From: an uncultured Chromatiales bacterium
GTDB lineage: Bacteria > Pseudomonadota > Gammaproteobacteria > DATFLL01
DNA length: 64,000 nt
Assembly: GCA_964561765.1 (NCBI GenBank)
Contig: CAZLQI010000004.1
Coordinates: 54,665 to 118,664 of the forward strand
Reading direction: 5' to 3'
The notes under the pieces are model-generated. The model was not told where the DNA came from. It ran no database searches and was given only the letters and a program-made list of their open reading frames with translations. The translations under genes and the position numbers were made by a program. Shown here one piece after another: positions 7,017-50,946 of this stretch. Positions within the stretch are counted from its first letter, which is position 1. The number at the start of each line of letters is the position of its first letter.

Positions 7017-7018
7017 CG

Positions 7019-9228: not shown

Positions 9229-9277
9229 GAGGACCCATCCCCTTTCAACTCTGACGGGCCATCCGACTCCTTATCAT

Positions 9278-9305
9278 TACGACACGTACATGTCGAATAA
9301 GTTCG
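9278..9305 (-). promoter_or_regulatory. Putative sigma-E-type autoregulated promoter of rpoE
   Basis: On the minus strand, CGAACTT (consensus GGAACTT), a 16-nt spacer, then TCGTA (consensus TCTGA/TCAAA), roughly 50 nt upstream of the rpoE ATG. Confidence 0.3.
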
Positions 9306-9447
9306 CCAGATGGCCATGCTTTTGGGTATAGTGTGTCCCACCCTCGGAGGCGACAATCAACCGTAGCCAGCCTTGGATTCCCACCGGGATTAGCCTTAAT
9401 GATAACTGCAACAAAAGTACACCGCGCCAGCACTTGCCCCTTGAACT

Positions 9448-11052: not shown

Positions 11053-11090
11053 ACGACACCCATCACGGCAACCTCGGTCGCAATCACCGT

Positions 11091-11561: not shown

Positions 11562-11763
11562 CCTTGTCAAAGGGCACGGCACGGCCCATCAGATATTCCA
11601 GTAGCAAGGGATCGGAGCACGCCAGCAGGGTTTCCAGTGCCGTGCGCTGTACCGCATCCAGTTCGGCATAACGCCGGTCCATAAAACCCTGCAACAGGGC
11701 ATCGAGTTCCAGCATACCACGCCGACATTGCCAATAGAGGCGCTGGAAGTCCCGCGTCTGCAT
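11515..11763 (-). CDS. sdhE: FAD assembly factor SdhE (YgfY/CptB)
   Basis: 82 aa: MQTRDFQRLYWQCRRGMLELD... aligns with E. coli SdhE (the conserved WACRRGM.ELD motif). Confidence 0.8.
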   Translation of the reverse strand: MQTRDFQRLYWQCRRGMLELDALLQGFMDRRYAELDAVQRTALETLLACSDPLLLEYLMGRAVPFDKDVADVVVQIRNAVEP

Positions 11764-11785
11764 TACCGAAGCATCGAGCACCACG

Positions 11786-11794
11786 CCCCCCCCC
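11786..11794. repeat. Homopolymeric C9 (G9 on the coding strand) tract in the sdhB-sdhE intergenic spacer
   Basis: Nine consecutive C at 11786-11794, about 22 nt upstream of the sdhE ATG. Confidence 0.8.
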
Positions 11795-11807
11795 GGACCC
11801 GTGTCCT

Positions 11808-12503
11808 TCAAACCATCTCCTGGAGCATCAGATGCTTGATGGCATGGATGGCTCGTGCCGGATTCAGCCCCTTGGGGCAGGCTTCGACACAGTTCATGAT
11901 GGTGTGACAACGGAACAGGCGATAGGGACCATCGAGTTCCTGCAACCGCTGAGCAGTGGCCTGATCCCGACTGTCGGCCAAAAAACGATAGGCTTGCAAC
12001 AAAGCGGCCGGACCACGGAACTTGTCCGGGTTCCACCAAAAAGACGGGCACGCAGTGGAACAACAGCCACACAGAATACACTCGTACAGACCATCGAGAC
12101 GCTCCCGTTCCTCAGGGCTTTGGCGGTATTCCACTTCCGGTTCAGGCTCGTTGACAATGAGGTAGGGCTTGACTGCCCGGTAGTGTTGAAAAAACTGGCT
12201 CATGTCGACCACCAGGTCACGCACCACCGGCATACCGGGTAGCGGGCGTACCTCCACCGGCTCACTAAGGTCCGCCAACGCGGTCACACAGGCCAGACCG
12301 TTGCGCCCATTGATATTCATGGCATCGGAGCCGCACACGCCTTCACCGCAGGAATGACGAAAGCTCAAACTCTCATCCTGGGCCTTGATGCGCAACAGCG
12401 CATCGCGCAACATCATGTCCGCACGAACCTCATCCAGCGCATACGCCTTCATATATGGCTTGGCGTCAGTCTCGGGATTGTAGCGGTAGATCAGAAACTG
12501 CAT
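11808..12503 (-). CDS. sdhB: Succinate dehydrogenase iron-sulfur subunit
   Basis: 2Fe-2S and 4Fe-4S Cys motifs (CGSCAMNING.., CILCGCCS). Full-length SdhB. Confidence 0.9.
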   Translation of the reverse strand: MQFLIYRYNPETDAKPYMKAYALDEVRADMMLRDALLRIKAQDESLSFRHSCGEGVCGSDAMNINGRNGLACVTALADLSEPVEVRPLPGMPVVRDLVVDMSQFFQHYRAVKPYLIVNEPEPEVEYRQSPEERERLDGLYECILCGCCSTACPSFWWNPDKFRGPAALLQAYRFLADSRDQATAQRLQELDGPYRLFRCHTIMNCVEACPKGLNPARAIHAIKHLMLQEMV

Positions 12504-12623
12504 CAGAAAGTCCTCAATCCTCAGTGGTCAGGCAAAAATACGCCGAGGTTCCTCGCCGCCACCACCGTCAACGCCCCCTCACGTCACACCACCCTCTGCT
12601 TCTTGCCAACCACGGAGATTAGC

Positions 12624-14384: not shown

Positions 14385-14722
14385 AGCACCACGACAGACA
14401 GAACAATCATCAGGACCCACACCACCATGGCCAGCAGCGCGAGCAGAACCAGGCCGAGCAGGACCAGGCGCAAGGCCAAGGGGTGGACATAATCAATCAG
14501 GATATTGCGCAATCCGACCCAGGTATGGATCAGCAAGGCGGCAAAAAACAACGCAACAGCCACACTGACCACCGGCATCGCCAACAGCGCGTGCCATGCC
14601 GCAAAGTCCAAGGGGTACATGATGCCCAGCACGGGCAGCGCCGCCAGCACGAACACGACCAGATAGATCGCGCTCAGACGCTGCCACAGCCACGCCCTGA
14701 GGCCCTGCACACGCCAGTTCAC
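14381..14722 (-). CDS. sdhD: Succinate dehydrogenase membrane anchor subunit
   Basis: About 113 aa with three TM helices. A GTG start overlaps the sdhC TGA (GTGA). Confidence 0.75.
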   Translation of the reverse strand: MNWRVQGLRAWLWQRLSAIYLVVFVLAALPVLGIMYPLDFAAWHALLAMPVVSVAVALFFAALLIHTWVGLRNILIDYVHPLALRLVLLGLVLLALLAMVVWVLMIVLSVVVL

Positions 14723-15120
14723 CACAGGACCCCTGCTGCACCTACCAGCGCCGTGACCACCAGCGCCAGCAGACCAACGGCCCAAGCGCTACGACGTGCG
14801 GGACGCAGTGCCGTACCCCAGCCCATATCCAGGTACAGGTGGCGTAATCCGGTGAACAAGTGATGTGACAAGGCCCAAGTGGCCACCAACAGCACCACTC
14901 TGACCGGCAAGGCGTCAAACCAGGACCTCACCGCGGCAAAACCCTGGGCATCGTGCAACGAGCGCTGCAGGCCATAAATGAGGACAGGGGTCAGTAAAAC
15001 CAGCAGAATACCCGAAATCCGGTGTGCGACCGAGATCACGGCAATGATCGGTTGGTGTATCTTGAACAGATTGAGATACTTGGGACGGCGCTTACTCACG
15101 GGGTGTGTGCCTGGCAACAT
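14719..15120 (-). CDS. sdhC: Succinate dehydrogenase cytochrome b556 subunit
   Basis: About 133 aa: KRRPKYLNLFKIHQPIIAVISVAHRISG matches the SdhC N-terminus. The start is probably MLPGTHP. Confidence 0.85.
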   Translation of the reverse strand: MLPGTHPVSKRRPKYLNLFKIHQPIIAVISVAHRISGILLVLLTPVLIYGLQRSLHDAQGFAAVRSWFDALPVRVVLLVATWALSHHLFTGLRHLYLDMGWGTALRPARRSAWAVGLLALVVTALVGAAGVLW

Positions 15121-15309
15121 GGCGCTCAGTGAGGGGGGGATGACATCGGGGACAGCGCAGACCCTGCGCACCGGCATGCCTGATGCTGAATAAAGAGAAT
15201 CACTGTCACGCTGAACACACGCATTCATACCCTGCAATGTTGTATCATGCTTGTCTTTGATTCTAACCTAATTTCTGACAGAAAACAGACCAACCTGAAA
15301 CAGGGCCTG

Positions 15310-16368
15310 ATGATGAATGCAATTTGGCAAAGATACCTGGAACACGAAGGTGCCCACTTAGGCGCTAACCGTAGCGTCATTTTCAGTGATGAGTCAACTG
15401 AAATCGAGGCCATCGAGGGCGATGTTATTGCCGACCTCTCACACCTCGGACTCATTCGCGTCCACGGCGCAGATGCCCACGATTTTCTCCAGGGCCAGTT
15501 CAGCAATGATCTACGCCAGGTCGACGCGACCCACAGTCAACTCAGTGCCTATTGCAGTCCCAAGGGCCGCATATTGACCGGCTTTCGCCTATTCATGCGT
15601 GAGGAGGCCTTCTACCTTGTACTACCCCGTGAGCTGCTCGAGGCCACCCTCAAGCGCCTACGTCTGTTTGTGCTGCGCAGTCAGGTGGTGCTCGAAGAGG
15701 CAAGCGATACACTCGTCGCAATGGGCGTAGCCGGTGCCAAGGTGGACACCCACCTGCGCCCCTGGTTCACCGATGTGCCCACCGCACTCAACAGCGGCCG
15801 CACGGAGAACGGCATCACTGCCCTTTGTCTGTCGGATCACCACGCCCCCCGGTACATGCTGTTTGCCCCGCCCGAACGGCTTGTTACACTCTGGGCAGCA
15901 CTCCGGAAAACAACCCAGGCGGTGGGCACTGCAGCTTGGCGCATGCTGGATATCCGCGCGGGTATTCCCTTGATTCAGACCGCTACCGTCGAGGCCTTTG
16001 TCCCGCAGATGGTAAACTACCAGCTCATCGGCGGCGTCAGTTTTAAAAAGGGCTGCTATCCGGGTCAGGAGGTGGTCGCCCGTATGCAGTACCTGGGCAA
16101 GCTCAAACGCCGCATGTACCGGGCCCGTATTGACCACGACGACGACCTCACCACGCCCAGTGCCGGCGATGATCTCTACGATGCGCATGGCGATGACCAA
16201 AGTGCCGGGAAGATAGTCGACGCACAAGCCCTGCCCACAGGGGGTTACGAGTTGCTCGCCGTCATCCGGATCGCCGCGGCCGATGGCGGTGAACTGCGAC
16301 TGCACAGGCGCAATGGGGTCCCGGTCCATCTGCAGACCCTACCCTATGCGCTCGACCAGGCCAAGTAG
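15310..16368 (+). CDS. ygfZ: tRNA-modifying folate-binding protein YgfZ (CAF17 family)
   Basis: KGCYPGQE motif near the C-terminus and an aminomethyltransferase-like fold. Genomic association with sdhE-ygfX as in E. coli. Confidence 0.8.
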   Translation: MMNAIWQRYLEHEGAHLGANRSVIFSDESTEIEAIEGDVIADLSHLGLIRVHGADAHDFLQGQFSNDLRQVDATHSQLSAYCSPKGRILTGFRLFMREEAFYLVLPRELLEATLKRLRLFVLRSQVVLEEASDTLVAMGVAGAKVDTHLRPWFTDVPTALNSGRTENGITALCLSDHHAPRYMLFAPPERLVTLWAALRKTTQAVGTAAWRMLDIRAGIPLIQTATVEAFVPQMVNYQLIGGVSFKKGCYPGQEVVARMQYLGKLKRRMYRARIDHDDDLTTPSAGDDLYDAHGDDQSAGKIVDAQALPTGGYELLAVIRIAAADGGELRLHRRNGVPVHLQTLPYALDQAK

Positions 16369-16497
16369 TCGGAGACACCACAGCGTGCCTTTCTGGCTCA
16401 ATGGACCGGGACGAGCACATACGCTGGCTTTTGGCGTGATACCCGACCTCAACTCTTCCCGCAACCGGCCGATAGCCAGTAACAGAAAGGCACACCC

Positions 16498-17471: not shown

Positions 17472-19019
17472 CTACTGTACGGCGTCATCGCCTGCCGGGC
17501 GCATGTGCGGAAACAACAAGACATCGCGAATTGACGGCGCATCCGTAAACAGCATAACCAGACGATCGATACCGATGCCCTCACCAGCCGTGGGTGGCAT
17601 GCCATGTTCGAGGGCACGCACATAGTCGGCATCGAAGTGCATGGCCTCTGCATCACCGGCCTCCTTCTCAGCCACCTGCCTGCGAAAACGCTCGGCCTGA
17701 TCCTCGTAATCGTTAAGCTCCGAGAAGCCATTGGCAATCTCGCGACCACCAACAAAGAATTCGAAACGATCCGTCACAAAGGGGTCCTGATCATTGCACC
17801 GCGCCAGCGGCGAAACCTCGGTGGGATAGGCAGTGATAAAAGTGGGGTCCTGCAATTGTCCTTCCACTGTTTTTTCGAATATCTCGATCTGTAGCTTGCC
17901 CAGCCCCCAACTTGCCTTGATGGGAATACCAAGGTGGCGCGCCACGCCACGGGCGCGATCCTGATCATCAAGATCGGCCGTCGACAAATCAGGGTTGAAG
18001 TGCAGGATAGACCCTTTGACGCTCATGCGTGCAAAGGGTTTGCTGAAATCATAGCACTCACCCTGATAGCTGATCTGCGCCGAGCCGATCACATCTTCGG
18101 CAATGCCGCGCAGGAGCGTCTCGGTCAGGTTCATCAAATCCGTGTAAGTTGCATAGGCCTCATAGAACTCCAGCATAGTGAATTCCGGATTGTGCCGGGT
18201 GGAGAGACCTTCGTTGCGGAAATTACGGTTGATCTCGTAAACACGCTCAAAACCACCGACGACCAAACGCTTGAGATACAGCTCGGGCGCTATGCGCAGG
18301 AACAGGGGCATATCCAGCGCATTGTGATAGGTCGTAAAGGGCCGGGCCGTGGCCCCCCCCGGAATCGCCTGCATCATCGGCGTCTCGACCTCGAGGAAGT
18401 CACGTCCATTGAGGAAATTGCGAATATAGTTGACGATGCGTGTGCGTGTGCGAAAAGTCTCGCGCACCGACTCATTCATGATGAGATCGACATAGCGCTG
18501 GCGGTAGCGCTGCTCGGTATCCACCATACCCTTGAACTTGTCCGGCAAGGGCCGCATGGCCTTAGTCAGTAGGCGCAGCGTGTCGACCTTGACCGAAAGC
18601 TCGCCTTTTTTGGTCTTGATGAGGGTACCCTCAGCACCGATGATATCGCCCAGATCCCAGCTCTTGAACCGTGCATAGTCCCCCTCGGGCAGGATATCGC
18701 GTTCCACCCACAGCTGTATGCGCCCGGACATATCCATGAGCTGGGCGAAACTGAGTTTACCCATCACCCGCTTGAGCATCATCCGCCCGGCAATGGCCAC
18801 ACGCACCTGTGCCTGTTTCAAGGCATCGTTGTCCTTTTCGCCGTATTGCGCGCGCAACTCACCGGTCATGACATCGCGATGAAAATCGTTCGGAAACGCC
18901 ACACCCTGTTCGCGCAGCCGTTGTAACTTCTCACGCCGCTGCGCGATCAGCGCATGCTCATCGTGTTGTCCGGTGCCTGCTGGCCCGGCGTGTCGTTCAC
19001 TCTCGTTTGAGTCACTCAT
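17472..19019 (-). CDS. lysS: Lysyl-tRNA synthetase class II
   Basis: Full-length similarity to E. coli LysS: an N-terminal anticodon-binding OB fold and class II motifs ([16 protein letters not shown]). Confidence 0.9.
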
Positions 19020-19099
19020 TGTCTCGCCATGTCAGGGCCCGTCTGCGCTCTACCTCGTTGTGCAGAGGGTCATCATCACCATTATCGTTTGATTTACAC

Positions 19100-20198
19100 C
19101 TAGAGTCCGCTCTTCAGACTGGCCTGAATAAACGCATCCAGCTCCCCGTCCAACACCGCCTGGGTATTGCCGGTCTCGACCCCCGTGCGCAGATCCTTGA
19201 TACGGGACTGGTCAAGCACATAGGAGCGAATCTGGCTGCCCCAGCCGATATCCGACTTGGCATCTTCCTGCGCCTGTTTCTCTTCGTTGCGCTTTTGCAG
19301 TTCCATTTCGTAGATCTTGGCCTTGAGCTGATTCATGGCATGCGCCTTGTTCTGGTGCTGGGAACGCTCACTCTGGCATTGCGCCACGATACCCGTCGGG
19401 TTATGCGTAATGCGCACTGCCGAATCGGTCCGGTTGACGTGCTGACCACCCGCACCACTGGCACGATAGGTGTCGATACGCAAGTCAACCGGATTAATCT
19501 CGATTTCGATGTCCTCATTCACTTCCGGGTAGATAAACACCGAGGCGAAGGAGGTATGGCGACGATTGCCCGAGTCGAACGGCGATTTGCGCACCAGCCG
19601 ATGCACGCCCGTCTCCGTGCGCAGCCAGCCATAAGCGTAGTCGCCGACAAATCGCACCGTAACACTCTTGAGACCAGCCACCTCTCCCCCCGAGAGTTCG
19701 ATGATCTCCGTGCTAAAACCACTGCGCTCACCCCAGCGCAGGTACATACGCAACAACATATTGGCCCAATCCTGCGCCTCGGTCCCCCCGGAACCGGCCT
19801 GAATATCCAAATAGGCATTCCTGGCATCCATGGCGCCGGAAAACATGCGCCGAAACTCCAAACCGGCCAGTTGCTGGTCGTAGGCCTCAAGCTCGTTGCT
19901 CACGGCATTGAAGGTCTCCGCATCATTCTCCTCTGCGGCCATTTCCAGCAATTCCTCAGTCTCCTGCAAGCCGGTGTCGAGTCTACGCAGGGTCTCGACG
20001 ATCTGTTCCAGACGCGCACGCTCACGGCCCAGTTCCTGGGCGTGTTCTGGGATATTCCAAACGGCGGGATCTTCCAGTTCGCGAATCACCTCTACCAGGC
20101 GTTCCTGCTTGGTATCGTAGTCAAAGATACCCCCTCAGGGCATGTGCGCGCCCTCGCATATCCTTGATACGGGTGCGCACCGCATTGCACTCCAACAT
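19100..20198 (-). CDS. prfB: Peptide chain release factor 2, with programmed +1 ribosomal frameshift
   Basis: A frame-0 leader [25 protein letters not shown] ends at CTT TGA C (complement of 20120-20126), preceded by an internal SD AGGGGG. The +1 frame continues [23 protein letters not shown]... through the GGQ motif (SGAGGQHVN). The shift site is identical to E. coli. Confidence 0.9.
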
Positions 20199-23114: not shown

Positions 23115-24188
23115 TCACGATTTCTCACACACACCAAGTATATCGCGCAGTGGGCGTCGACGGTGCCACCCGTGTCGCCAGGCAGGGCGTTCCAGACACC
23201 ACTGCCTGCCGGTGTCACTGACCAGTGTGAGACGCCCCAATCGACCCCGGCCCAGCGCCTCCAGCAAGGGCGCCAGCCAGCAGGACTGCACCTCGCCCAG
23301 CGCCCCCAGCCAGTTGTCGGCATCCGCGGTCAATACTGCCGCATGCAGACTATCAAGCACTAACAGGGATGTCTCGTGTGCATCACACGCAGCCAGCAAG
23401 GCATCCGCATCATCCGGTAGGGCACGTCCTGGCGTATCGGTATGGCAGGCCAATCCCCGTGCCAGGGGATGATCGGCCATAACCGTGTTGAACCGGGCCG
23501 GGACCGTGGGTGGCAGCGTGCCGCCTCCCCAGAACCAGAGGCTATTGACAGGCAGACGTCCCGCCTCTTCGCGCACCGTATTGAGCGCACAGGCGTGCAG
23601 AATCATCTGCACATCGTTGAGATACCGACGCCAGCAGCGTGCCGCCTTGCCCCGTGGCAAGGCGGTGTGCATGTCCCGGCCCAACACCTCGGTCAATGGG
23701 GTGGTCTGCAGTTGCGGCGGCCCACCCGCGTCGCCACCAAGTCTGAGATACCAGCGATGTGGATGCGCCACCTCCAGATGCCAGCCCTGTTCCGCAAAGC
23801 CCGCAGCGACAGCATCGGCCAACTGCCGGGCCTCCTCCACACACAAGGCCAATGCGTCATGCGCCAGCACAAGGGCACGGTCGCGATCGATCTGCACGTA
23901 GATGGGATCGGCACGCAGCCACCAAGATCCGTCAGGTGTACCCCTATCGTGCAGCCGGGTCAGCGCCGCCACCGGCAAATCTTCCTGGGTCCCGACAGGC
24001 AGGCCAAACAGGGCAAACAGCCCGGCTTCGAGTCCCTGCACACCGGTCGTCTGGCCCCGTGCCCGCGTCAGGGCAATCTCCAGCCCGCGTAGCGCTGGCC
24101 AATCTGACAACGGCCGTTCAGACAGGCCAGACAGTGGACCACACAGTCCCGGCATATAGACGGTGAGATGAGGAGAGAATCGACTCAT
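23115..24188 (-). CDS. Conserved hypothetical protein; possibly RpfE-type / alkaline-phosphatase-superfamily phosphoglycerate-mutase-like
   Basis: 357-aa ORF between hom and recJ. The family is not recognised with certainty from sequence alone. The RpfE-type assignment is a recollection of recJ-adjacent genes in Xanthomonas. Confidence 0.4.
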   Translation of the reverse strand: MSRFSPHLTVYMPGLCGPLSGLSERPLSDWPALRGLEIALTRARGQTTGVQGLEAGLFALFGLPVGTQEDLPVAALTRLHDRGTPDGSWWLRADPIYVQIDRDRALVLAHDALALCVEEARQLADAVAAGFAEQGWHLEVAHPHRWYLRLGGDAGGPPQLQTTPLTEVLGRDMHTALPRGKAARCWRRYLNDVQMILHACALNTVREEAGRLPVNSLWFWGGGTLPPTVPARFNTVMADHPLARGLACHTDTPGRALPDDADALLAACDAHETSLLVLDSLHAAVLTADADNWLGALGEVQSCWLAPLLEALGRGRLGRLTLVSDTGRQWCLERPAWRHGWHRRRPLRDILGVCEKS

Positions 24189-32162: not shown

Positions 32163-32676
32163 TCAGCCCTCGATCTCCACCCGCTTCTCTATCGCGGGAT
32201 TGGCCGGATCATCACCGATCAGCTCACGCACCACGGCGGTGGCATAGCTCCCCGCTGGCAGACTAAAACGCAACGTCAATTCACCGGCAACACCCTGCTC
32301 CCACGCCAGATCCGTCAGCCCGAGTCGCAAGGCACGCCGTTCCTGTCGCAATCCCACACCGGCCAGTGCGAGACACCACTCATCCAGTCCCACCAGCGCC
32401 TCAGCCTCCACGGCGGCGGCCTGGGCGCACACCGGCAAACTGCGCCAGACGCCGGGCCAGCCAGTCAGTGTTCAGGCCACGTTTGCGCAATTGCAACCAG
32501 ACATGTTCACCATCGACCACCGTACCCGCACTGACCTGCAGATCGGGCACCGGGCCGGGCGTATAGCCGAGGATTTCCTCGACGACGAAATCCTCCGGTC
32601 GGGCACGCAGGATGGCGTGTGCAACCGCTGCACCGTGGGCCAGGGCGAGGGGGTGACAAACAGGGTGATCAGACAT
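32163..32676 (-). pseudogene. truD: tRNA pseudouridine(13) synthase TruD remnant with internal deletion and frameshift
   Basis: The ORF 32401-32718 encodes the TruD N-terminus (RARPEDFVVEEILGY...). The ORF 32163-32438 encodes the TruD C-terminus (LTLRFSLPAGSYATAVVRELI). The frames differ, and roughly 180 central codons are missing. Confidence 0.65.
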
Positions 32677-32830
32677 GGGGTAGAGACTGCAAGCGGGGCC
32701 GTGGACAATATCGGCCAATGAATGATTCGATGAGACTGTACACTACGGGGCGGCAATGCCGATATCACGCACTATGCGCAGCCCCGCTGACAGCACGCAA
32801 TCTGCCATCGTCCGGTACGCAGCGGACCAC

Positions 32831-35474: not shown

Positions 35475-35845
35475 TCATCCATCACCAGAGAGGAACTGTC
35501 CCTTCTTGATGTTCACCGGCAGTCCTGGCGTGCCACGTTCTGGATAAAGTTGGTCTGCCGACACAAAAAGGCCGGTGTCTGCAACACATCGACCACTGCC
35601 GCCACCTCATTGATGGGCGTATCTTCATGCACGTCGGTGAGCACCGCCACACCGAGCTGGCGTTTGACCGACTCCAGGATACGCAGACCTTTCTCCAGCC
35701 CTAGTCCGCGGAAACTCCCGCTCGAGGTTCGGTTGGCCTTGTCGAAGGAGGATTTGTAAATGAGCGACATGCCTAGCCGCGCGGTAATGACCTGAATCGC
35801 CTCGGCCGTGTCCAGCGCCAGTTGTCTCGATCACACAGGGCCCGG
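35475..35845 (-). pseudogene. kdsA: 2-dehydro-3-deoxyphosphooctonate aldolase (KdsA) remnant
   Basis: [46 protein letters not shown]...TDVHE...[15 protein letters not shown] aligns with KdsA residues about 30-135. There is an in-frame TGA at 35831-35833 where the conserved Glu of VLESRD sits. A frameshift occurs near 35513 ([13 protein letters not shown] then stop). Both the N-terminal 25 codons and the C-terminal half are absent. Confidence 0.65.
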
Positions 35846-35891
35846 CTATCAGGAACAGGGGCAGCCTTGAAATCGCACAGCGACATCGCGC

Positions 35892-39414: not shown

Positions 39415-40377
39415 TCACTGCTCTTCCTTGAAATGACCCGACTGCATCAGATGCGTATAGCGTTGTTCGAGCAGCATGTCCATAGGGATGGCGTCCAACT
39501 GCGCGAGGGCCGTGTTCAGTCCGGCCTTGAGGCGCTGAGCGGTGACTTCGATGTCACGGTGGGCACCACCGAGCGGTTCCATGATCACCTCATCGATCAG
39601 CTCGAGCTGCTTGAGCCGCCCGGAAGTAATCCCCAGCGCCTCAGCCGCATCCGGTGCCTTCTCCGCGCTCTTCCACAGGATAGAGGCACAACCCTCGGGC
39701 GAGATCACCGAATAGATGCCGTATTCCAACATCATCACCCGGTCGCCGACACCGATCGCCAGCGCACCACCGGAACCGCCTTCGCCGATAACGGTGCAGA
39801 CAATCGGCGTTTTGAGCTGTGACATGATGAACAGGCTACGGGCAATGGCCTCGCTCTGCCCCCGCGCCTCGGCATCCACACCAGGGTAGGCGCCGGGGGT
39901 GTCAATAAAGGTCAGTATCGGCAGGGAAAAGCGCTCTGCTATTGCCATCAGCCGCTGTGCCTTGCGATAGCCCTCGGGGCGAGGCATAGCAAAATTACGG
40001 TAGACCTTTTCCTTGGTATCACGTCCCTTCTGATGACCAATTAACATCACCGGGCGCGCATCGAGTCGCGCCAGGCCACCCACGATCGCCGGATCATCGG
40101 CATAGGCACGATCACCGTGGAGTTCCTGAAAATCCGTGAAGATGTGCTCGACATAGTCCAGCGTGTAGGGACGTTGCGGATGACGGGCCAGTTGGGCGAT
40201 CTGCCAGGCACTGAGGTTGTCAAAGATGGATTCTGTCAGCTCGCGGCTCTTGGCCTGCAGGCGGTCGATCTCCTCACTCAGATTGATCGCCGAGTCGCTG
40301 TCAACATAGCGCAGCTCCTCGATCTTCGCCTCAAGCTCGGCGATAGGTTGTTCAAAATCCAGGAAATTCAGATTCAT
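39415..40377 (-). CDS. accA: Acetyl-CoA carboxylase carboxyltransferase alpha subunit
   Basis: Full-length AccA similarity. Confidence 0.9.
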
Positions 40378-40571: not shown

Positions 40572-43500
40572 TCAATAATCGAGATGCACGGCCGCACGAC
40601 CGGCGAGCGCGATCAGCCGGTGCAACAATTCATCGCTCGGTTGCACCCGCCACGCCTCGCCCAGGCCCAGGCGTGCGCGGGCAGCGCTGTTTTCGTAATC
40701 GAGCACCACCGGGCAGTCACCCTCACGGAAGGGTGACAGGGTGCGCTCCAGTGACCCCACGAAACCGGTACCGGTCTGTACCTGATCGAGCTTAATCACC
40801 AGGCACCGTGCATAGTGCGCACGGGCATGTTCCAGGTCATAGATAGTGCGCGCACTCATTTTGTAACCACCGCTGTACTCATCCACGCTGATCTCGCCCT
40901 CGACGACGATCAAGCGGTCCTTGGCCAACAGATCCCGATAAGACTGAAACACTTCGGCGAACACCGCCAGTTCAATACGCCCGCTGCGATCGTCGATGGT
41001 GATGAAGGCCATTCTGCCGCCGCGTCGAGTATTCATGGTGCGCATGGACATCACCAGACCTGCCACCGTCACGCTTTGGTCGCGGGTGGGTTTGAGTTGT
41101 GCAATACGCGACGTGGTGAACTTCGCCAGTTCGGGCAAATGCCGGTCAATGGGATGACCTGTGAGATACAAACCCAGCGTCTGTTTCTCTGCCGCCAGAC
41201 GCTGCTCCTCATCCCAGTCAGGCTGTACGTGGTAGACACCGCCACCGGTATCCCCTTCCCCGCTCGGCTCAAAACCGAACATGTCCTCCACACCCACCTG
41301 GTGATTCTGCATGTGCTGCTCGGCGCACTTTAGCGCATCGGGCAGGGTTGCCATGAGCGTGGCGCGGTTGACATCAAAGACATCCAACGCACCGGCAAGA
41401 ATCAGGGCCTCGAACACACGGCGATTGACACGTCGGTGGTCCACCCGGCAGCACAGGTCAAAGAGATTGACATAAGGCCTGTCGTCACCGCGCGCGGCCA
41501 CAAGGGCCTCGATCGCCGCCGCACCAACGCCCTTGATCGCCCCCAGACCATAGAGGATGGCACCGTCGCCACGCACAGTGAAGTGGTGGCTGCAGCGGTT
41601 CACATCCGGCGGTTCGACGACCAGTTTCATGTCGCGGCACTCGTCGATGAGCGTCACCACCTTGTCGGTGTTGTCCATATCGGCCGAAAGCACGGCGGCC
41701 ATGAAGGCGGCGGGAAAATGCGCCTTGAGCCAGGCCGTCTGGTAGGACACCAGGGCATAGGCGGCAGAGTGCGACTTGTTGAAACCGTAACCGGAAAAAA
41801 ATTCCATGAGGTCGAAGATGGTGCTCGCTGCCTTCTCATCGACACCGCGTGCCAGTGCGCCCTGGGTGAATATCTCGCGTTGCCTGGCCATCGCCTCGGC
41901 GTTTTTCTTGCCCATGGCGCGACGTAGCAGGTCGGCACCACCGAGTGTGTAGCCGGCCAGGACCTGGGCAATCTGCATCACCTGTTCCTGGTAGAGGATC
42001 ACGCCATAGGTAGGCTTGAGGATGGGCAATAGGTCCGGATGCGGGTATTCGACCTTGGCGCGACCTTGTTTGCGATTGATGAAGTCATCCACCATCCCTG
42101 ACCCTAGAGGACCGGGACGAAACAAGGCAACCAGCGCCACGATATCCTCGAAGGTATCGGGTTGCAGACGCTTGATCAGATCCTTCATGCCGCGGGATTC
42201 GAGTTGGAACACTGCAGTGGTCTGGCAGGCCTTGAGCAGCTCAAAGGTTAATGTGTCATCCAGCGCAATCGCCGTCATGTCGATCAGCGTCTCGCCCTGC
42301 GTGCGCCGCTGTTCATTGATGGTCTTGAGCGCCCAGTCGATGATAGTGAGGGTACGCAGACCCAGAAAGTCGAACTTGACCAGTCCAACGGCCTCGACGT
42401 CATCCTTGTCGAACTGGCTCACCAGGTTGGGCGAACCCTGCTCGCAGTACAGCGGCGTAAAGTCGGTCAATTTTGACGGCGCAATGACCACACCGCCAGC
42501 GTGCTTTCCGGCATTGCGAACCAGGCCTTCCAGCGACTGCGCCAAGTCGATGAGCATACGCACATCTTCCTCGGACTCGTAGAGCGTGCGCAGTACCTCT
42601 TCATCCTCCAGAGCCTTGGCCAGGGTCATTTTAAGTTCAAAGGGGATCAGCTTGGCAATCTTATCGACAAAACCATAAGGGTGACCCAGGACCCGGCCGA
42701 CATCACGTACTACCGCTTTGGCCGCCATCGAACCATAGGTGATGATCTGGGAAACCTTGTCTCGACCATAGCGATCAGCGACATACTCGATAACCCGGTC
42801 ACGCCCCTCCATACAAAAGTCGATATCAAAATCGGGCATGGACACACGCTCGGGATTGAGGAAGCGTTCAAACAGCAAATCATAGGCCAGCGGATCGAGG
42901 TCGGTGATGGTCAGGGCGTAGGCCACCAGCGAACCGGCACCTGAACCACGCCCCGGACCCACCGGAATGCCGTTTTCCTTCGCCCACCGGATGAAATCGG
43001 CCACGATAAGGAAGTAACCGGGAAAACCCATCGCGGTGATCACCTCCAGCTCGACGTCCAGACGCTCGTCATAGGGACGTCGGCGCTCGGTGAAATCCGC
43101 AGCGCCAGGATCGAGAAGGCGTTGCAGGCGCCGCTCCAGACCCGCCCGGGCCTCGTGTTCGAAATAGGTCTCCATACTCATCCCCGCGGGGATAGGAAAG
43201 TCCGGCAGAAAATTCTTGCCCAGAGTGAGTTCCAGATTGCAGCGTCGGGCAATCTCAACGCTGTTCTCCAGCGCCTCGGGTACATCGGCGAACAGCTCCA
43301 CCATCTCCTGCGGGCTGCGCAGATACTGCTGATCACTGTAAAGATGCGCCCGACGCGGATCGTCCAGCGTACGTCCCTCATGAATGCACACGCGGGCCTC
43401 GTGGGCCGCGAAGTCTTCACTTGAAATGAAGCACACATCGTTGGTCGCCACGATCGGCAGACCGCGTGCCAGTGCCAGGCTCACCGTTTGGTGCAGGCAC

Positions 43501-44051
43501 TCCTCCTCGCCTTCCCGACCCGTGCGTTGCAATTCCAGGTAATAGCGATCAGGGAACAAGCGCTGCCATTCATCCAGGTAACGCGCGGCCTGCTCAGAGT
43601 GTCCCGCCAGCAACGCCCGGCCGACATCGCCACTGCGACCACCGGATAAGGCAATCAGCCCGGCATTCTTGCCCTCCAACCATTCCCGACGCGCGATAGG
43701 GATGCCACGTTGCTGACCCTCGGTATAGGTGCGCGACACCAGTTCGGTGAGATGGCGGTAACCCTGTTCGTTCTGACAGAGCAACACCAGACGCGAGGGG
43801 GCATTGTCATGCCCCTCGTTGTGCAGCCACAGGTCAACACCCACAATGGGCTTGACGCCCACCGCCATGGCGGCGCGGTAGAATTTGACCATGGCAAACA
43901 GATTGCTCTGGTCCGTGAGCGCAACGGCCGGCATGCCGGCTTCGACCACGGCCTGGACCAGCGGTGTGATCCGTACCACGCTGTCAACGAGTGAGTACTC
44001 GGTGTGCAGGTGCAGGTGAACAAAATTCGGCTGAGAGCGGGGCTCGGACAT
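40572..44051 (-). CDS. dnaE: DNA polymerase III alpha subunit
   Basis: 1159 aa with a PHP domain (HLHLHTEYSLVDS) and the polymerase core. Confidence 0.95.
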   Translation of the reverse strand: MSEPRSQPNFVHLHLHTEYSLVDSVVRITPLVQAVVEAGMPAVALTDQSNLFAMVKFYRAAMAVGVKPIVGVDLWLHNEGHDNAPSRLVLLCQNEQGYRHLTELVSRTYTEGQQRGIPIARREWLEGKNAGLIALSGGRSGDVGRALLAGHSEQAARYLDEWQRLFPDRYYLELQRTGREGEEECLHQTVSLALARGLPIVATNDVCFISSEDFAAHEARVCIHEGRTLDDPRRAHLYSDQQYLRSPQEMVELFADVPEALENSVEIARRCNLELTLGKNFLPDFPIPAGMSMETYFEHEARAGLERRLQRLLDPGAADFTERRRPYDERLDVELEVITAMGFPGYFLIVADFIRWAKENGIPVGPGRGSGAGSLVAYALTITDLDPLAYDLLFERFLNPERVSMPDFDIDFCMEGRDRVIEYVADRYGRDKVSQIITYGSMAAKAVVRDVGRVLGHPYGFVDKIAKLIPFELKMTLAKALEDEEVLRTLYESEEDVRMLIDLAQSLEGLVRNAGKHAGGVVIAPSKLTDFTPLYCEQGSPNLVSQFDKDDVEAVGLVKFDFLGLRTLTIIDWALKTINEQRRTQGETLIDMTAIALDDTLTFELLKACQTTAVFQLESRGMKDLIKRLQPDTFEDIVALVALFRPGPLGSGMVDDFINRKQGRAKVEYPHPDLLPILKPTYGVILYQEQVMQIAQVLAGYTLGGADLLRRAMGKKNAEAMARQREIFTQGALARGVDEKAASTIFDLMEFFSGYGFNKSHSAAYALVSYQTAWLKAHFPAAFMAAVLSADMDNTDKVVTLIDECRDMKLVVEPPDVNRCSHHFTVRGDGAILYGLGAIKGVGAAAIEALVAARGDDRPYVNLFDLCCRVDHRRVNRRVFEALILAGALDVFDVNRATLMATLPDALKCAEQHMQNHQVGVEDMFGFEPSGEGDTGGGVYHVQPDWDEEQRLAAEKQTLGLYLTGHPIDRHLPELAKFTTSRIAQLKPTRDQSVTVAGLVMSMRTMNTRRGGRMAFITIDDRSGRIELAVFAEVFQSYRDLLAKDRLIVVEGEISVDEYSGGYKMSARTIYDLEHARAHYARCLVIKLDQVQTGTGFVGSLERTLSPFREGDCPVVLDYENSAARARLGLGEAWRVQPSDELLHRLIALAGRAAVHLDY

Positions 44052-44119: not shown

Positions 44120-44731
44120 TCAACCCTGTTCCGCCTCCAGCAGGCGCCGGACGGGGGCATAGGAGCGCCGATGTACGGGCGTGACGCCCAGGCTCGCCAG
44201 GGCTTCCAGGTGCTGTTTCGAGGGGTAACCCTTGTGTTTCGCCAGACCGTAACCGGGATACCTGGCATCCAGCTCAACCAGTTCCCGGTCGCGTACTACC
44301 TTGGCCAGGATCGAGGCGGCGCTGATCGAGGCGACCCGTGCATCGCCCTTGATCACCGCCTCGGCCGGGCACGGCAAGCTGGGGCAACGGTTGCCGTCGA
44401 TCAAGGCAAACTGTGGCGCCACCGACAGGGCTGCGATGGCGCGCTGCATGGCCAGCAAGCTCGCCTGCAGGATATTGATGCGGTCGATCTCCTCGACCTC
44501 GGCACGGCCCACGCCCCAGGCCAGCGCCCGCTGGCGGATTTCCTCAGCCAGACACTCGCGTTTCGCCGCGCTCAGGACCTTGGAATCGGCCAACCCCTCG
44601 ATGGGGCGCTCAGGGTCGAGAATCACCGCCGCAGCCACCACCGGCCCGGCCAAGGGGCCCCGCCCTACCTCATCCACACCGGCTACATATCGGTAACCCC
44701 GAGTGAAATCAAACCCGACTTGTGCTGACAC
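44120..44731 (-). CDS. rnhB: Ribonuclease HII
   Basis: [15 protein letters not shown] active-site motif. GTG start with a GAGGA SD. Confidence 0.9.
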
Positions 44732-44982
44732 GGTTATCCTCGCGTGACCTGTACCATGTGGGCGTCAAGCTTACCCGGACATCGGACCGCTGTCATGTCC
44801 CTGAGGACACATCTGCATCACGCATTTCACCCGGCTCGCTCACAAAGTAAAGGAACCCCTGAGTCAAGACAGAAACACGCCGAGTTTAAGCTGTGCATTC
44901 CCCTTCATACGCAGCAGGTCGGCATCGCCCCGGTGGTGGTATAAGTCTCTGATTTTCCATCACTGCCAAATCTGTCCACGAT

Positions 44983-45135
44983 CACCGCCCCGCCACCCTG
45001 GCGGCTCGCATACACCCGATCCGGCTGCCTGCATCAATGTCCACCTCCGGGCCAATCACCGTGAACAGCCCGACAGTCACACCGTCGCCTATCCTGGCAT
45101 CGGGGTCTACAACCGCGCGCGGATCGACACTCATA
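44983..45135 (-). pseudogene. lpxA: UDP-N-acetylglucosamine acyltransferase LpxA N-terminal stub (50 codons)
   Basis: The ATG overlaps the fabZ TGA (ATGA), as canonical. [40 protein letters not shown] aligns with the hexapeptide-repeat start of LpxA, then a stop. There are only about 250 nt before rnhB and no lpxB. Confidence 0.6.
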
Positions 45136-45577
45136 CCGCCTCGCGTTCGGCGCACATCAACTCAGCACTACAAACCACCTTGTCATCAACCAGCGCCTTG
45201 CCAACAAATTTCCATACCCCGCGCATGCTCTTCACAACATCGACCTCAAGACGTAACTGGTCGCCTGGTTCGACCGGCTGCTTGAAACGCACATTGTCGA
45301 TACCCACCAGATAATACAGCGATCCTTCATCCGGTTTCTTACCTACGCTCAGGAAGGCCAGTATTCCAGTTGCCTGGGCCAATGCCTCGACGATAAGTAC
45401 ACCCGGCATCACCGGACGTTGTGGAAAGTGTCCGCAGAAGTAAGGCTCGTTGAACGAAACATTCTTGATGGCCACAAGCGAGCGGCCTGGTTCACACGCC
45501 AACACCCGATCCACCAATAAAAAGGGATAACGGTGCGGGAGATATTGAAGTATTTCGTGTATATCCAGTGAGCTCAA
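45131..45577 (-). CDS. fabZ: 3-hydroxyacyl-ACP dehydratase FabZ
   Basis: [13 protein letters not shown] and GHFP motifs. Probable TTG start with an AAAAGGAG SD. Confidence 0.9.
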
Positions 45578-45581: not shown

Positions 45582-46622
45582 TCACTCCTTTTGTGCTTGA
45601 GATTGTAATTGTTTCTCCAACACCTTGAGGCGCCGCGCCATAGCGTCGAGTTGTTTAAAACGTACAAAATTCCTGTGCCATTGGCGGTTGGGTTCCAGTG
45701 GCACACCGGACGAGTACACCCCGGGCTCGGAAATGGAATGAGTCACCATCGACATACCGGTGATTTGTACGTTATCGGCTATTTCCAGATGTCCGACTAC
45801 ACCCACACTTCCGGCCAGGACACACGCCCGTCCAATCTTCGCACTACCTGCGATGGCCGTACACGCAGCAACTGCGCTATGTGCACCAATGTGCACATTA
45901 TGGCCAACCTGGATCAGGTTATCGAGTTTTACACCCTCCTCCAGGATGGTGTCCTCCAACGCTCCACGGTCAATCGTCGTATTGGCACCCACCTCCACAT
46001 CATCACCGATACGCACTGTGCCAAGCTGTGGCACCTTGACCCAGCGGCCCTGATCATTGGCAAGACCAAAACCTTCTGCACCGATCACCACACCCGGGTG
46101 TAACAACACACCCTGGCCGACAATAACATCATGGCACAGCGTGACATTGGCAATCAGCTGTGTGTTGCGGCCGATCTCCACCCCGGCACCCACAACACAG
46201 CCCGGGCCGATAAAAACGTCTTCAGCAATATGGGCACCGGATTCTATGACGCTGTTAGGTCCAATCCAGGCACCGTTGGCCACGCGGGCATCTGCAGCGA
46301 CCACCGCGGTAGCGTGTATGCCCTGTGGGTGCTCCTGCTCACCGAGTAGCAAAGTCGCAATCCGCGCATAAGCAAGATAGGGGTCAACCACGATTAGGGC
46401 GGCTGTCGGACAGGCATCAATATCCGGGCGGCGTAAAATCACGGCTGCCGCCTGCGTCTGTGGCAACTGTTTGCGAAATGGCGCACGGGTCAGGAAGGTT
46501 ATCTGTCCCGCACTGGCAAGGTGCAGAGGGGCAACACCCTCAATAATGAGTTCGGCATCACCGTGAACCTCACCCGCTACATACTCCGCTAGCATGCCGA
46601 GGGTATATTTTATCGGCGAGAC
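45582..46622 (-). CDS. lpxD: UDP-3-O-acylglucosamine N-acyltransferase
   Basis: Full-length LpxD with left-handed beta-helix hexapeptide repeats and the conserved C-terminus. Confidence 0.9.
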
Positions 46623-46648
46623 ACCCTGTTGTTGATCTCTTTCCATCA

Positions 46649-47206
46649 TCACTTTTTCGCGGGCGCACCCGGTTTTCCACTACCCGTGGCGCTGTTCTCG
46701 CGGCGCAGTACATCCAGTACTTTTTGCGTCACATCAACGCGTTCACTCGCATACAACACGCTGTTGTCCCCAAGGATCATGTCATAGTGCTGTTCTTTGG
46801 CCAGGGTGGCTATCGCCAGCAGAACTTGGCGTTGCAGCTTGCTGAGTTCTTCATTTCGACGGATATTGAAATCCTCGCGAAATTCATCCTGGGAACGTTT
46901 TATATCACGTTTTTTCGACAAGATGGCACTCTCAAGTTCACCCTGTTTGTTATCACTCATCAGCGCGCCATTACGCGCCAGTTTGTCCTCAAGTTTTGCG
47001 AGCTGTTTTTGCGCCTTGACCAACGCCTTATCGCGAGGCGCAAACTCTGTCTGTAATTTATGCCGTGCCACTTCCGCCTGTGGGGCTTCTTCGAGCACCT
47101 TAGCCGTGTTGACGAAGCCCAGTTTGACTTCGGCGGCCCACAACGGTGTCGCCAAACACAGCAACAGACTAAACGAGACTGCCATATAGATATTGTATTT
47201 TTTCAA
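46649..47206 (-). CDS. skp: Periplasmic chaperone Skp (OmpH)
   Basis: Signal peptide followed by a coiled-coil OmpH domain. Between bamA and lpxD. Confidence 0.8.
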   Translation of the reverse strand: MKKYNIYMAVSFSLLLCLATPLWAAEVKLGFVNTAKVLEEAPQAEVARHKLQTEFAPRDKALVKAQKQLAKLEDKLARNGALMSDNKQGELESAILSKKRDIKRSQDEFREDFNIRRNEELSKLQRQVLLAIATLAKEQHYDMILGDNSVLYASERVDVTQKVLDVLRRENSATGSGKPGAPAKK

Positions 47207-47252
47207 AGCTGCCTCCATCGCATCCGGAACAAAGTCCTCACACAGATCATCC

Positions 47253-49529
47253 TCAGAACGGCGAGCCCATGGTGAACTGGAAGGATTGCTTTTCATCACC
47301 TGGCTTGGCATTGAGCGGTGTCGCCAGGCTGAAGCGCAGGGCCCCGACCGGTGTCAGCCAGATGGCTGATATGCCCGCAGAATAACGCAACTCACTCAGT
47401 TTGACCTTCTGGATTGATGTATCAAACACATTGCCGGCATCCAGAAAGGTGCTAAATCGTACAGAGTTACTATTTTTCGCAAACGGATTGGGAAAGATCA
47501 GCTCCACACTGCCAACGATACTCACATTGCCGCCAATCGGCAGATTGGTCACCGGATCATGCGGTCCCAGGGTATTTGCTTTAAAGCCACGCACCGAATC
47601 GGTACCGCCAGCATAGTAATTCTCAAAAGGCGGTAGCTGTGTCGTGTTACCAAAACTTGCACCATAGCCCAACTGCGCCCGCATCGACAGGGTAATCTTT
47701 TTGCTCAGCGGAATATAGCCACGTTGCAGATAGCCCAGTTTGTAGAATTTGAGACTGCTACCTGGTGCTGTCACCTCGGCCGTTACTTGGGCCAGCGTAC
47801 CCCGGTCAGCAAAGATCGCGCGATTACGGGTGTCGTGTGTCCAGCTTGTAGTGAACTTATAAAGATGATAGCTACTACCTTCTTTTCTAATAAAATCAAG
47901 TATTTGTTGAGCTGTCTGGGTGCCCGTCAATAAGTCCGTGCTCTCATAGCCGAGCCCGGCACGCACGGTATCATTTTCGCTGAGCGGGATACCATAGTTG
48001 ACAGAAGCCCCGTAACTGTTGGTCGTGTAATATGTCAGATTGGCCTGGGAGGCGTTGACCTTACGCGAATAAATCTGGAAACCACGGCTGATCCCGTTCA
48101 GCGTATAGTATGGATTGGTATAGTTGAAGCTGTAGACCTGGGTCACCTGGCTGTTGTTGATGTTGATGCCCACCCGCTTGCCGGTACCGAGGAAGTTGTT
48201 CTGGGTCACACTGAAATTGAGCAACAGTCCCTGACTGCCGGAATAACCGACACCCGCCTGCAAACTCCCGGTCGCCCGTTCGCTGACATGGTAGTTGAGA
48301 TCGACCTGATCATTGGTACCCGGCACCACCGGTGTATTCACGCTGACATTACTGAAATACCCCAGACGTTGAAGACGAGTGCGTGAACGGGCAACCTTTC
48401 TGGTAGACATCATGCCGGCCTCCATTTGTCGCATCTCGCGGCGAATCACCTCATCACGGGTGGTCGTATTACCGGTGATATTGATACGGCGCACATAGAC
48501 GCGTCGACCTGGATCGACAAAAAATGTCAAGGCAACAGTTTGTTTCTTTTTGCTAACCTCCGGCACGGCATTAACATTGGCGAACGCGTAGCCTTCATCG
48601 CCAAGACGATCAGAAATGGCCTTGGTGGTTGCGGTGATTTTCTTGCGCGAGAAGATATCCCCCGGATTGATGCTGATCAGTTTCTCTACCTGCGCCTTTG
48701 GCAGGACTAGATTTCCTGCCAAATTTACGGCACTGACCGTGTACTTCTTGCCCTCAGTGACATTAATCGTCACGTAGATATCTTTCATGTCAGGCGTCAA
48801 CGAAACTTGTGTGGAGTCGATATTGAAGTTGATATAACCCCGATCGAGATAATACGAGCGCAGGGTTTCAAGATCGCCGGCCAGTTGCTGTTTGGAGTAT
48901 TTACTGTGGCCAGTAAAAAAACTGACTTTGCTGAGCTTGAGAAAACTGCGCAGATCATCCTCACTGTAGGCATGGTTGCCAACAATGTTGACGCGGTGAA
49001 TCACCGCCGAATCACCTTCGGCGATCTTGACCTTGATATCTACCCGGTTACGCTCCAACGGCGTTACCGCAGTCTTGATCGACACCGCATACTTGCCCAA
49101 ACTATCGTACTGTCGACGCAACTCCTGCTCGATACGCGCAAGCATGGAGCGATCGAACACGCGGCCCTCCGTCAAACCGATTTGTTTGAGCGCGGAATTG
49201 AGTTGTTCAGTGGGGATAGCGCTATTGCCGGTAACAGAAATGCTGGCAATCGCCGGGCGCTCAGCCACGAAGACCACCAATGCATCACCTTCGCGTTGCA
49301 AACGCACGTCCTTGAAAAAACCGGTTTTGTAGAGGTCGCTAATGGCCTTGCTGGCTAGCCTGTCATCAAGCCGCTCGCCAACCTTGACGGGAAGGTAATT
49401 AAAAACAGTCCCGACCGATATGCGTTGCAGACCTTCGAGACGGATATCCCGGATAGTAAAAGGCTCGAAGGCGTAAGCGGGCAGTACGAACACATAACAA
49501 AATAAAAGCACCAGAAAAAATTTTTTCAT
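47253..49529 (-). CDS. bamA: Outer membrane protein assembly factor BamA
   Basis: Signal peptide [10 protein letters not shown]..., five POTRA domains and an Omp85 beta-barrel. About 760 aa. Confidence 0.9.
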
Positions 49530-49578
49530 GAAATACCCGCGTCTATCCTGCTTGTCATATTGACGGTTGACCCCGGGT

Positions 49579-50946
49579 CTAACCAAACAACCCGGAAAGA
49601 TCGTTATAAAAAGCCAGGCTCATAAGCATAACCAGGATTACTATACCTACACGTTGCCCCACGGCCTCGGTTTGTTCCGAGACCGGACTACCTTTTACAA
49701 TCTCGATAAAATAGTACAACAGGTGACCACCATCCAGGATGGGGATCGGCAACAGGTTCAGCACGCCCAGGCTGAGGCTGACAATGGCGATAAAATCAAG
49801 ATAATGAGTCGGTCCAGCGCTGGCAGACTCGCCGGCATAACGGGCGATATTGATGGGACCGCTGAGATTCTTCACCGAGGCCTCGCCAATGAGGATTTTG
49901 CCCAACATATTCAACGTCAGTGTCGACATTGTCCAGGTCTTGTGTACTGCCTCGTTGATGGCGCCCAGCACCGGATAACGATAGATCGCCTTCATGCTTT
50001 GCGGCATTGGCGTACGCTGCGCCGGTGTGATGCCTACTTGTGCCACCCGCGCGCCATTTTCCATAACGCGATGCGGTGTTACCGATACCACACGACTGCG
50101 ACCTTCCCGATCGATGCGAAATACTATCGGTTTACCGGTATTTTTCCGTACCACATCGACCAGAGCCTGCCAGTCATCAAGCGCCTTGCCATTGGCAGCA
50201 ACAATGTGATCGCCCGGTTCGAGACCGGCTTGCTGCGCCGCCGAACCGGGCAATATCTTGCCGATGATCGTAGCCACCCGGGGCAACCAGGGCACGATAC
50301 CGAGGTGCTCAAATATCCGCTTGGTGATCTCATGAGCCTTGAGCCTGCGAAAATCGAGTTGCGCGTGCCGCGTATCGCCATTGCGTTCGCGTAGCGTCAA
50401 CGCCACCTCGCTACGGTCGATCATCGCCGGCAACAAGGCCTGCAGGGCGGCATCCCAAATTGGAGTAATCCGACCATTGACCGCCACGATCTCCTCACCC
50501 GCATGCAGACCCGCCACCGCAGCCACCGAGCCGGACCTGACCTCACCAATCACGGGTTTGATGCCGCTCACACCGACGATAAACACCAGCCAGTAGATCA
50601 CGATGGCGAGCAAAAAATTGAACAACGGGCCGGCCAACACGATTGCGAAGCGTTTGTAGACTGGCTGACGATTGAAAGCGCGATGCAGCTCGTGCGCGGC
50701 CACCTCTCCCTCGCGCTCATCAAGCATTTTGACATAGCCACCCACAGGCAAGACGGCAACGACATATTCGGTTTGATCCGCACCGGCCCGGTGACGCCAC
50801 AGCGGGCGTCCGAAACCGATCGAATAGCGCAACACCTTGACACCGAGAGTCTTTGCCACCCAGAAGTGGCCAAACTCATGGACGGCAACCAGCACCGAGA
50901 TGGCGACAATAAAGGCAACAAGGGTAAACAAAACACTGCCGAACAT
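49579..50946 (-). CDS. rseP: Sigma-E protease RseP (S2P zinc metalloprotease)
   Basis: HEFGH zinc motif, PDZ domains and a C-terminal LDG motif. Confidence 0.9.

Follow-up and report, generated by a model that had tools for sequence, protein, structure and literature searches.

LPS is essential in almost all Proteobacteria, and to our knowledge its natural loss is documented mainly in highly reduced insect endosymbionts, together with a few drug-selected mutants. In a survey that covered 61 bacterial genomes, no sampled gammaproteobacterium lacked the early lipid A genes, and the two exceptions among the Proteobacteria were Wolbachia and Nitrosomonas europaea (PMC3087551). The 64,000-nt stretch of gammaproteobacterial DNA analysed here (the window) contains only a short lpxA reading frame and no lpxB between fabZ and rnhB. 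It thus raises the question of whether this reading frame is a working gene, an assembly error or a remnant, how much was lost with it, and whether the cell has given up LPS or makes it with genes located elsewhere. We put the probability that the locus is a genuine, evolutionarily recent deletion scar, and not a working gene, at about 85%. The features on which the analysis is based are collected in Table 1.

Table 1. Position and state of the genes and sequence segments discussed in the text.
Feature	Position in window	Strand	Description
rseP	49579-50946	-	intact
bamA	47253-49586	-	intact
skp	46649-47311	-	intact
lpxD	45582-46649	-	full-length, 355 aa as called in public assemblies; LpxD full profile, 431 bits
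fabZ	45131-45577	-	intact, 148 aa, TTG start; FabZ equivalog, 204 bits, full profile
lpxA stub ORF	44982-45134	-	50 codons + stop
LpxA N-terminus (stub codons 1-40)	45015-45134	-	homology to relatives
filler	44848-45014		167 nt, stands in for 4,133 nt of REF
retained rnhB 5' region	44732-44847	-	~91% identical to L082/REF; match begins precisely at 44847
rnhB	44120-44731	-	intact, 203 aa, GTG start; RNase HII equivalog, 306 bits; dN/dS 0.11
dnaE	40572-44051	-	
accA	39415-40377	-	
kdsA pseudogene	35487-35886	-	codons 1-139 survive, two frameshifts; codons 140-277 absent
truD remnant	32163-32718		two short ORFs, TruD profile positions 16-71 and 368-412 of 412

Structure of the lpxA reading frame

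As the preliminary description of this DNA had reported, lpxA begins on the minus strand at an ATGA overlap with fabZ and runs for 50 codons to a stop; fabZ ends ...GTA TGA, and the ATG of the stub (45134) lies inside that overlap. The upstream gene is closely conserved, FabZ being 98.6% identical in amino acid sequence to that of the closest relative with a dN/dS of 0.03. Codons 1-40 of the stub align without gaps to lpxA of relatives, in which the ATGA overlap with fabZ is conserved, placing the stub at the orthologous position, and tblastn with LpxA of Thiohalobacter and of closer relatives recovered residues 1-40 at 45134-45015. Over these residues the stub is 67.5% identical to the intact LpxA of one relative (L084), and with the first 39-40 residues of LpxA in the closest relative (REF, described below) it shares ~85% identity; at base level, homology to lpxA of REF ends after ...AGC CGG ATC GG, at 45016/45015. 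The earlier reading of all 50 residues as hexapeptide repeats thus stood for the 40 codons that are LpxA and failed for the last 10, since codons 41-50 and the stop at codon 51 are read-through into non-homologous filler.

Membership in the LpxA family was judged by a whole-protein score above the curated cutoff (226 or 231 bits) across about 255-264 residues. The stub matched profile positions 5-43 of 264 only (NF003657, E=5.7e-9) and fell below both cutoffs, with 35.4 bits vs 226 for NF003657 and 29.2 vs 231 for TIGR01852; the intact LpxA of the closest relative scored 372 bits. The LpxA HMM found nothing beyond residues 1-41 in any frame of 44700-45140. With homology stopping at codon 40, the stub is without a complete left-handed beta-helix, the catalytic histidine (His125 in E. 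coli LpxA) and the C-terminal helical domain (PF13720). Two substitutions at conserved LpxA positions, P23L and W38R, are specific to the window, and the dN/dS of the stub is 0.36. The stub, which is annotated as a gene in public assemblies, appears to be dead; lacking most of the beta-helix as well as the catalytic and C-terminal portions, it would be unable to acylate UDP-GlcNAc.

Between the stop of the stub and the GTG of rnhB (44731) lie 250 nt (44732-44981), a gap that the preliminary description had measured correctly and regarded as unassignable throughout. The 116 nt nearest to rnhB are in fact upstream region conserved at 91% identity, and the other 134 nt are filler.

Ancestral gene order in relatives

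The best RnhB matches among GTDB species representatives were 74-75% identical and came from gammaproteobacteria of the Thiohalobacter, Sedimenticola and Thiodiazotropha type, and closer relatives, with RnhB identities of 94, 88, 86 and 82%, were found in a collection of 5.8 billion proteins. In L084, which encodes the 82% RnhB, lpxD-fabZ-lpxA on the plus strand are followed on the minus strand by lpxB and the genes for a DegT-family aminotransferase and a GFO/IDH/MocA oxidoreductase (6415-9645), and this inverted cassette is followed by rnhB-dnaE-accA-tilS-pyrG-kdsA-eno, with rnhB again on the plus strand. The inverted lpxB-degT-gfo cassette is present in at least eight independent relatives, including contigs L006, L008, L035, L085 and L091 and those of SRR26421369/70, with L083 partial; the canonical orientation of lpxB was seen in 65 more distant loci. 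The order lpxA-lpxB-rnhB, which the preliminary description had taken as ancestral, is therefore wrong for this lineage. The inverted order lpxB-gnnB-gnnA matters for annotation, as the lost content is misjudged when the E. coli order is assumed.

The LpxB of the relative scored 320 bits. Its GFO protein was best matched by the UDP-GlcNAc 3-dehydrogenase model, although below the cutoff (217 vs 450 bits), and its DegT protein is a sugar aminotransferase by family match. GnnA and GnnB convert UDP-GlcNAc to UDP-GlcNAc3N, the precursor of diamino-sugar lipid A (PMC5644692). The position of gfo and degT beside lpxA and lpxB suggests that they encode a GnnA/GnnB-like pair, and the Thiohalobacter-related clade, with its inverted lpxB and gnnB-like and gnnA-like genes, is predicted from sequence to make lipid A of the GlcN3N type. 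The pairing of GFO/IDH/MocA and DegT genes beside lpxA/lpxB resembles the GnnA/GnnB loci of Acidithiobacillus ferrooxidans, Leptospira, Mesorhizobium and Campylobacter. Unlike at those loci, the function here is assigned only by family and neighbourhood, and both genes, present next to the lpx genes in relatives, are absent from the window.

Extent of the deletion

The reference used for the closest relative (REF, 16,419 nt) is our own join of three short Logan contigs from one metagenome (SRR25425416), with contig overlaps of 30 and 26 nt. L086 contributes tsf through lpxD, fabZ and the first 56 lpxA codons; L088 the lpxA C-terminus, lpxB and most of degT; and L082 the degT N-terminus, gfo, rnhB and the start of dnaE. 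Alignment to REF placed window 56314-45016 on REF 16-11319 (93.1% identity across 11.3 kb) and window 44847-43881 on REF 15453-16419 (91.7% identity, 0.97 kb). Between the two, REF 11320-15452 (4,133 nt) is swapped for the 167 nt of filler at 44848-45014. The lost sequence comprises lpxA codons 41-257, lpxB (400 aa), degT (364 aa), gfo (323 aa) and 153 nt of the gfo-rnhB intergenic region; colinearity with REF thus raises the loss from the ~1.7 kb estimated earlier to 4,133 nt and four genes. Colinear on both sides, with an internal segment gone and a premature stop, the locus has the structure of a deletion-type pseudogene.

The reported absence of lpxB, the gene for lipid-A-disaccharide synthase (TIGR00215, PF02684), was confirmed, there being no remnant in the junction or elsewhere in the window. 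A tblastn search with three LpxB proteins (from Thiohalobacter and closer relatives) gave a best E value of 0.38 in the junction and no match at or below 1e-2 in the whole 64 kb, and an LpxB HMM built from 73 sequences gave negative scores only in six frames. Remnants of DegT and GFO were likewise not detected in the junction or the window by tblastn or by HMMs in six frames. An LpxB C-terminus within 44732-44981 was rejected as a candidate, having no tblastn or HMM signal, and in this lineage lpxB lies on the other strand and not beside rnhB. The check that had been proposed for such a C-terminus at 44732-44982 found none, and it is inapplicable to the architecture of the relatives.

In the ancestor, lpxD-fabZ-lpxA lay on one strand and the lpxB, DegT and GFO genes on the other, followed by rnhB-dnaE. 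One deletion, or a few nested events, took out 4,133 nt and left 167 nt of filler. The right breakpoint spared 116 nt upstream of rnhB, so that the essential rnhB-dnaE unit keeps its own 5' region, and rnhB-dnaE would be expressed from that region, by read-through from fabZ, or both. With lpxA reduced to a stub and lpxB and degT/gfo deleted, the inherited genes for the first and fifth steps of the Raetz pathway and for the sugar-amination branch are gone.

The filler and the retained rnhB upstream region

In shuffle tests the filler resembled neither strand of the deleted segment, nor the sequence upstream of rnhB, more than expected by chance. Three origins were considered and rejected. For derivation from the deleted segment, the best alignment, to lpxA codons ~98-110 ('GGGAVIVDRFGSDGK' vs 'GGGVTRVGSDNW'), was insignificant, its score being reached by 34 of 500 shuffles, and it was also missed by the LpxA HMM. 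Duplication of the rnhB upstream region was not significant by the shuffle test. An origin as a repeat or mobile-element scar was not borne out either, as the filler occurs only once in the window and is matched by nothing in plasmids, phages or JGI metagenomes, the last searched by exact pattern. At the edges of the filler lies an imperfect 13-nt direct repeat (11/13; 45002-45014 and 44832-44844, CGGCTCGCTCACA / CGGCTCGCATACA), which may be microhomology from the joining event or may be chance.

Homology on the rnhB side starts with CTTTGTGA at 44847. In relatives, the sequence corresponding to 44732-44847 forms the end nearest rnhB of the spacer between the divergent genes gfo and rnhB, and it presumably holds the promoter or leader of rnhB-dnaE. 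Positions 44760-44810 are almost identical to those of the relative with 94% identity and contain short inverted repeats (GTCCTCAGGGAC; GGACAT...ATGTCC), and they may be a conserved regulatory element for rnhB-dnaE. Across the junction, Rfam returned no family (one match with E=0.44, inside rnhB, is noise), and a consensus scan found neither a promoter nor a terminator, including none of the latter between the stub and rnhB.

State of lpxD, kdsA and eno

The suggestion that lpxD is also affected did not hold up, as its ORF (maximal extent 45582-46652) is full-length and covers the full profile. Its pairwise dN/dS relative to the closest relative is 0.13, and that of neighbouring genes ranges from 0.016 to 0.27. 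The gene has nevertheless changed in two respects. Its ancestral ATG, as found in the closest relative, is ATA here (46611-46613), and a 1-nt insertion puts an upstream ATG (46649, at the skp stop) in the lpxD frame, giving a 12-residue N-terminal extension. Outgroup-polarised amino acid changes also show a modest lineage-specific excess (11 window-specific vs 4 relative-specific, compared with 17 vs 25 in control genes; Fisher p=0.038), which suggests a recent relaxation of selection on lpxD.

A separate lesion lies in kdsA, ~9 kb from the lpxA scar, and the inactivation of kdsA is independent of the lpxA-lpxB deletion. The eno gene, which is downstream of kdsA in L084, is absent from the window, where pyrG lies almost directly before ftsB-ispD-ispF with the ftsB junction near 35290. 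It is unexpected for a bacterium that is not parasitic to lose enolase. Since eno is nearly universally needed and rarely dispensable, its deletion makes a second eno elsewhere likely; either such a copy exists or the organism depends on a partner. The earlier count of three decayed loci, two of them in lipid A/Kdo synthesis, stands with the lpxA stub, the kdsA pseudogene and truD as its members; lpxD, which had been drawn into it, is not decayed.

Alternative explanations of the scar

The deletion is real and not an assembly error. A collapsed repeat or misjoin that dropped lpxA-lpxB is already largely refuted and is now barely credible. The assembly behind the window is probably a draft or metagenome-derived one, and contig L001 (SRR6439361), which is 100% identical over 45022-43884, stops 8 nt past the left breakpoint, which could hint at a branch in the assembly graph. 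Against this, another run (SRR6439355) yielded the 29-kb Logan contig L089, which matches window 48134-41982 through both breakpoints with one mismatch in 6,153 nt (99.98%), and the exact 50-aa stub product is encoded on five contigs (20-200 kb) from NCBI and Logan, the junction being reproduced in at least two other sequencing runs. The collapsed repeat that the preliminary description had raised as a possible refutation was not found, the only repeat at the junction being the 13-nt imperfect match; moreover, the sequence of the filler is unique, and two more pseudogenes of the deletion type are close by. The end of L001 would also fit a population in which the deletion genotype exists beside cassette-keeping cells (as LPS-less cheaters, or as a culture- or host-adapted subclone), in which case the lineage as a whole would not be LPS-free. 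Such a polymorphism would agree with recent inactivation, to which the intact lpxD points, as does the kdsA remnant, 78-80% identical to the KdsA of a distant relative, or about as much as intact neighbours. We nonetheless consider it improbable, as no contig of this organism with an intact allele was found, five of five contigs with the flank carry the stub, an LpxB partner at 90% or more was found in no sample among the best matches listed, and decay at three separate loci of a single contig suggests that the changes are fixed. It is barely credible that the 50-codon ORF has become a small protein coupled to fabZ, or the filler a regulatory RNA or leader for rnhB-dnaE. The coupling through ATGA is kept, the ORF is called as a gene and no terminator separates it from rnhB, but its substitutions at conserved LpxA positions are radical, its tail is arbitrary read-through into filler, the junction matches no Rfam family and shows neither a promoter nor a terminator consensus, and no homologue of the filler was found in plasmids, phages or JGI metagenomes.

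Loss or replacement of LPS synthesis

Accepting a recent deletion scar leaves the fate of LPS in this organism to be weighed. Because the lpxA/lpxB cassette is deleted and kdsA is broken 9 kb away, the inherited LPS genes are being lost; within the 64 kb, lpxA, lpxB and kdsA are dead and lpxD is intact. These losses suggest that LPS synthesis as a whole is gone, or is disappearing, from the lineage. Joint removal of lpxA and lpxB would block the pathway at its entry and avoid toxic late intermediates, in line with Acinetobacter baumannii, which tolerates loss of the early step catalysed by LpxC, whereas blocks at late steps are toxic through accumulation of intermediates (PMC5555675). Against loss of LPS, bamA, skp and rseP are intact, as are the envelope-stress genes rpoE-rseABC, and lpxD is full-length, has a dN/dS like that of its neighbours and has an in-frame upstream ATG to match the one it lost; a full-length lpxD under selection is unexpected if the pathway has long been useless.

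These observations would be accounted for if working copies of lpxA, lpxB (with or without gnnA/gnnB), kdsA and eno lie elsewhere in the genome and the cell still makes LPS, the copies having been acquired horizontally or by an older duplication and the native ones having decayed as redundant. With the normally indispensable eno deleted beside kdsA, one or more of the 'lost' genes are probably present at another site in the genome, and by analogy with eno there could be replacement LPS genes elsewhere. Purifying selection on lpxD with an apparently compensated start codon, and intact outer membrane biogenesis and sigma-E stress genes, point in the same direction. The search for such an lpxB speaks against it. 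No LpxB more than 80% identical to that of the relative (P0244), as expected of the lineage type, was among the best matches listed in the search of 5.8 billion proteins, although LpxD, FabZ, RnhB and the 50-aa stub of this organism are all in the collection, and the nearest LpxB matches came from other samples; the search is sensitive to an LpxB of the lineage type and not to a distant xenolog. The ranked list of matches was used for this comparison, as cluster membership alone is unreliable as a test of orthology: LpxD and FabZ of the organism cluster with the proteins of the closest relative, but RnhB proteins 94% identical fall in separate clusters. On balance, replacement by copies elsewhere is a serious possibility that we hold to be somewhat doubtful.

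The competing conclusion, that this gammaproteobacterium naturally lacks lipid A and Kdo and is seen here soon after the loss, with an otherwise unreduced genome of the free-living type, is tentative and on present evidence rather unlikely. If it were true, BamA, Skp, RseP, sigma-E/RseABC and a not-yet-decayed lpxD would have been kept, and the organism would be a natural experiment in rebuilding a proteobacterial outer membrane without LPS; as eno is also deleted, it may depend metabolically on a partner or host. Confirmation from the whole genome would establish a recent loss of LPS in an environmental lineage related to sulfur oxidisers. The closest relatives, at 93% nucleotide identity, keep the full cassette and would offer a near-isogenic contrast, which could show what envelope changes accompany loss of LPS and whether the loss marks a dependent lifestyle. 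If replacement genes lie elsewhere, the locus is a routine pseudogene scar.

Comparison with known cases of LPS loss

Laboratory or clinical null mutants in lpxA, lpxC or lpxD that are LPS-deficient exist in A. baumannii, Neisseria meningitidis and Moraxella catarrhalis. As in these mutants, the block here falls early in the lipid A pathway, where inactivation is tolerated. Those mutants are single-gene, colistin-selected or lab-engineered, whereas here a natural 4.1-kb multi-gene deletion is combined with a kdsA pseudogene in an environmental lineage.

A closer parallel at the same locus is found in the genome-reduced, Pantoea-derived symbionts of stink bugs, in which lpxA, lpxB and lpxD are progressively lost between fabZ and rnhB (PMC8032781). 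In both cases the LPS genes are gone with fabZ and rnhB-dnaE kept, kds genes decay in parallel, and pieces of genes persist together with short stretches of intergenic DNA (PMC8032781). In contrast to these members of the Enterobacterales, the lineage here is related to Thiohalobacter, Sedimenticola and Thiodiazotropha, its genome looks unreduced, lpxD is intact, the ancestral cassette was an inverted lpxB-gnnB-gnnA, and symbiont status is not indicated by the sequence of the window. Loss of LPS genes of this kind is thus already known, and what differs here is the lineage, which is apparently unreduced, and the ancestral gene order.

Other features of the window

The truD remnant reflects an internal deletion of about 300 codons, and a gene for a CheW-receiver (CheV-like) protein lies between ispF and this remnant. 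An extra pseudogene at 23115-24188, with a weak apgM/homoserine-kinase-like match, was considered and dropped, the ORF being continuous. Intact genes in the window include recO-era-rnc-lepB-lepA, rseC-rseB-rseA-rpoE, nadB, the sdh genes, lysS, prfB, recJ, hom, rpoS-nlpD-pcm-surE, cheV, the block from rpsB to rseP, map, glnD and dapC. The window looks like part of an unreduced genome of roughly 58% GC that carries CheV, rpoS and rpoE-rseABC.

The prfB ORF (19100-20089) matches the RF2 profile only from position 30, and this is no sign of decay; prfB is expected to contain a natural programmed +1 frameshift. A longer antisense ORF on the plus strand (19007-20167) has no family match and is probably spurious. 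The G+C content is 0.47-0.49 at recO-era-rnc-lepB-lepA (window 1-6000) and 0.51-0.53 at skp-bamA (46000-50000); it reaches 0.65-0.70 in rnhB and is 0.58-0.65 elsewhere.
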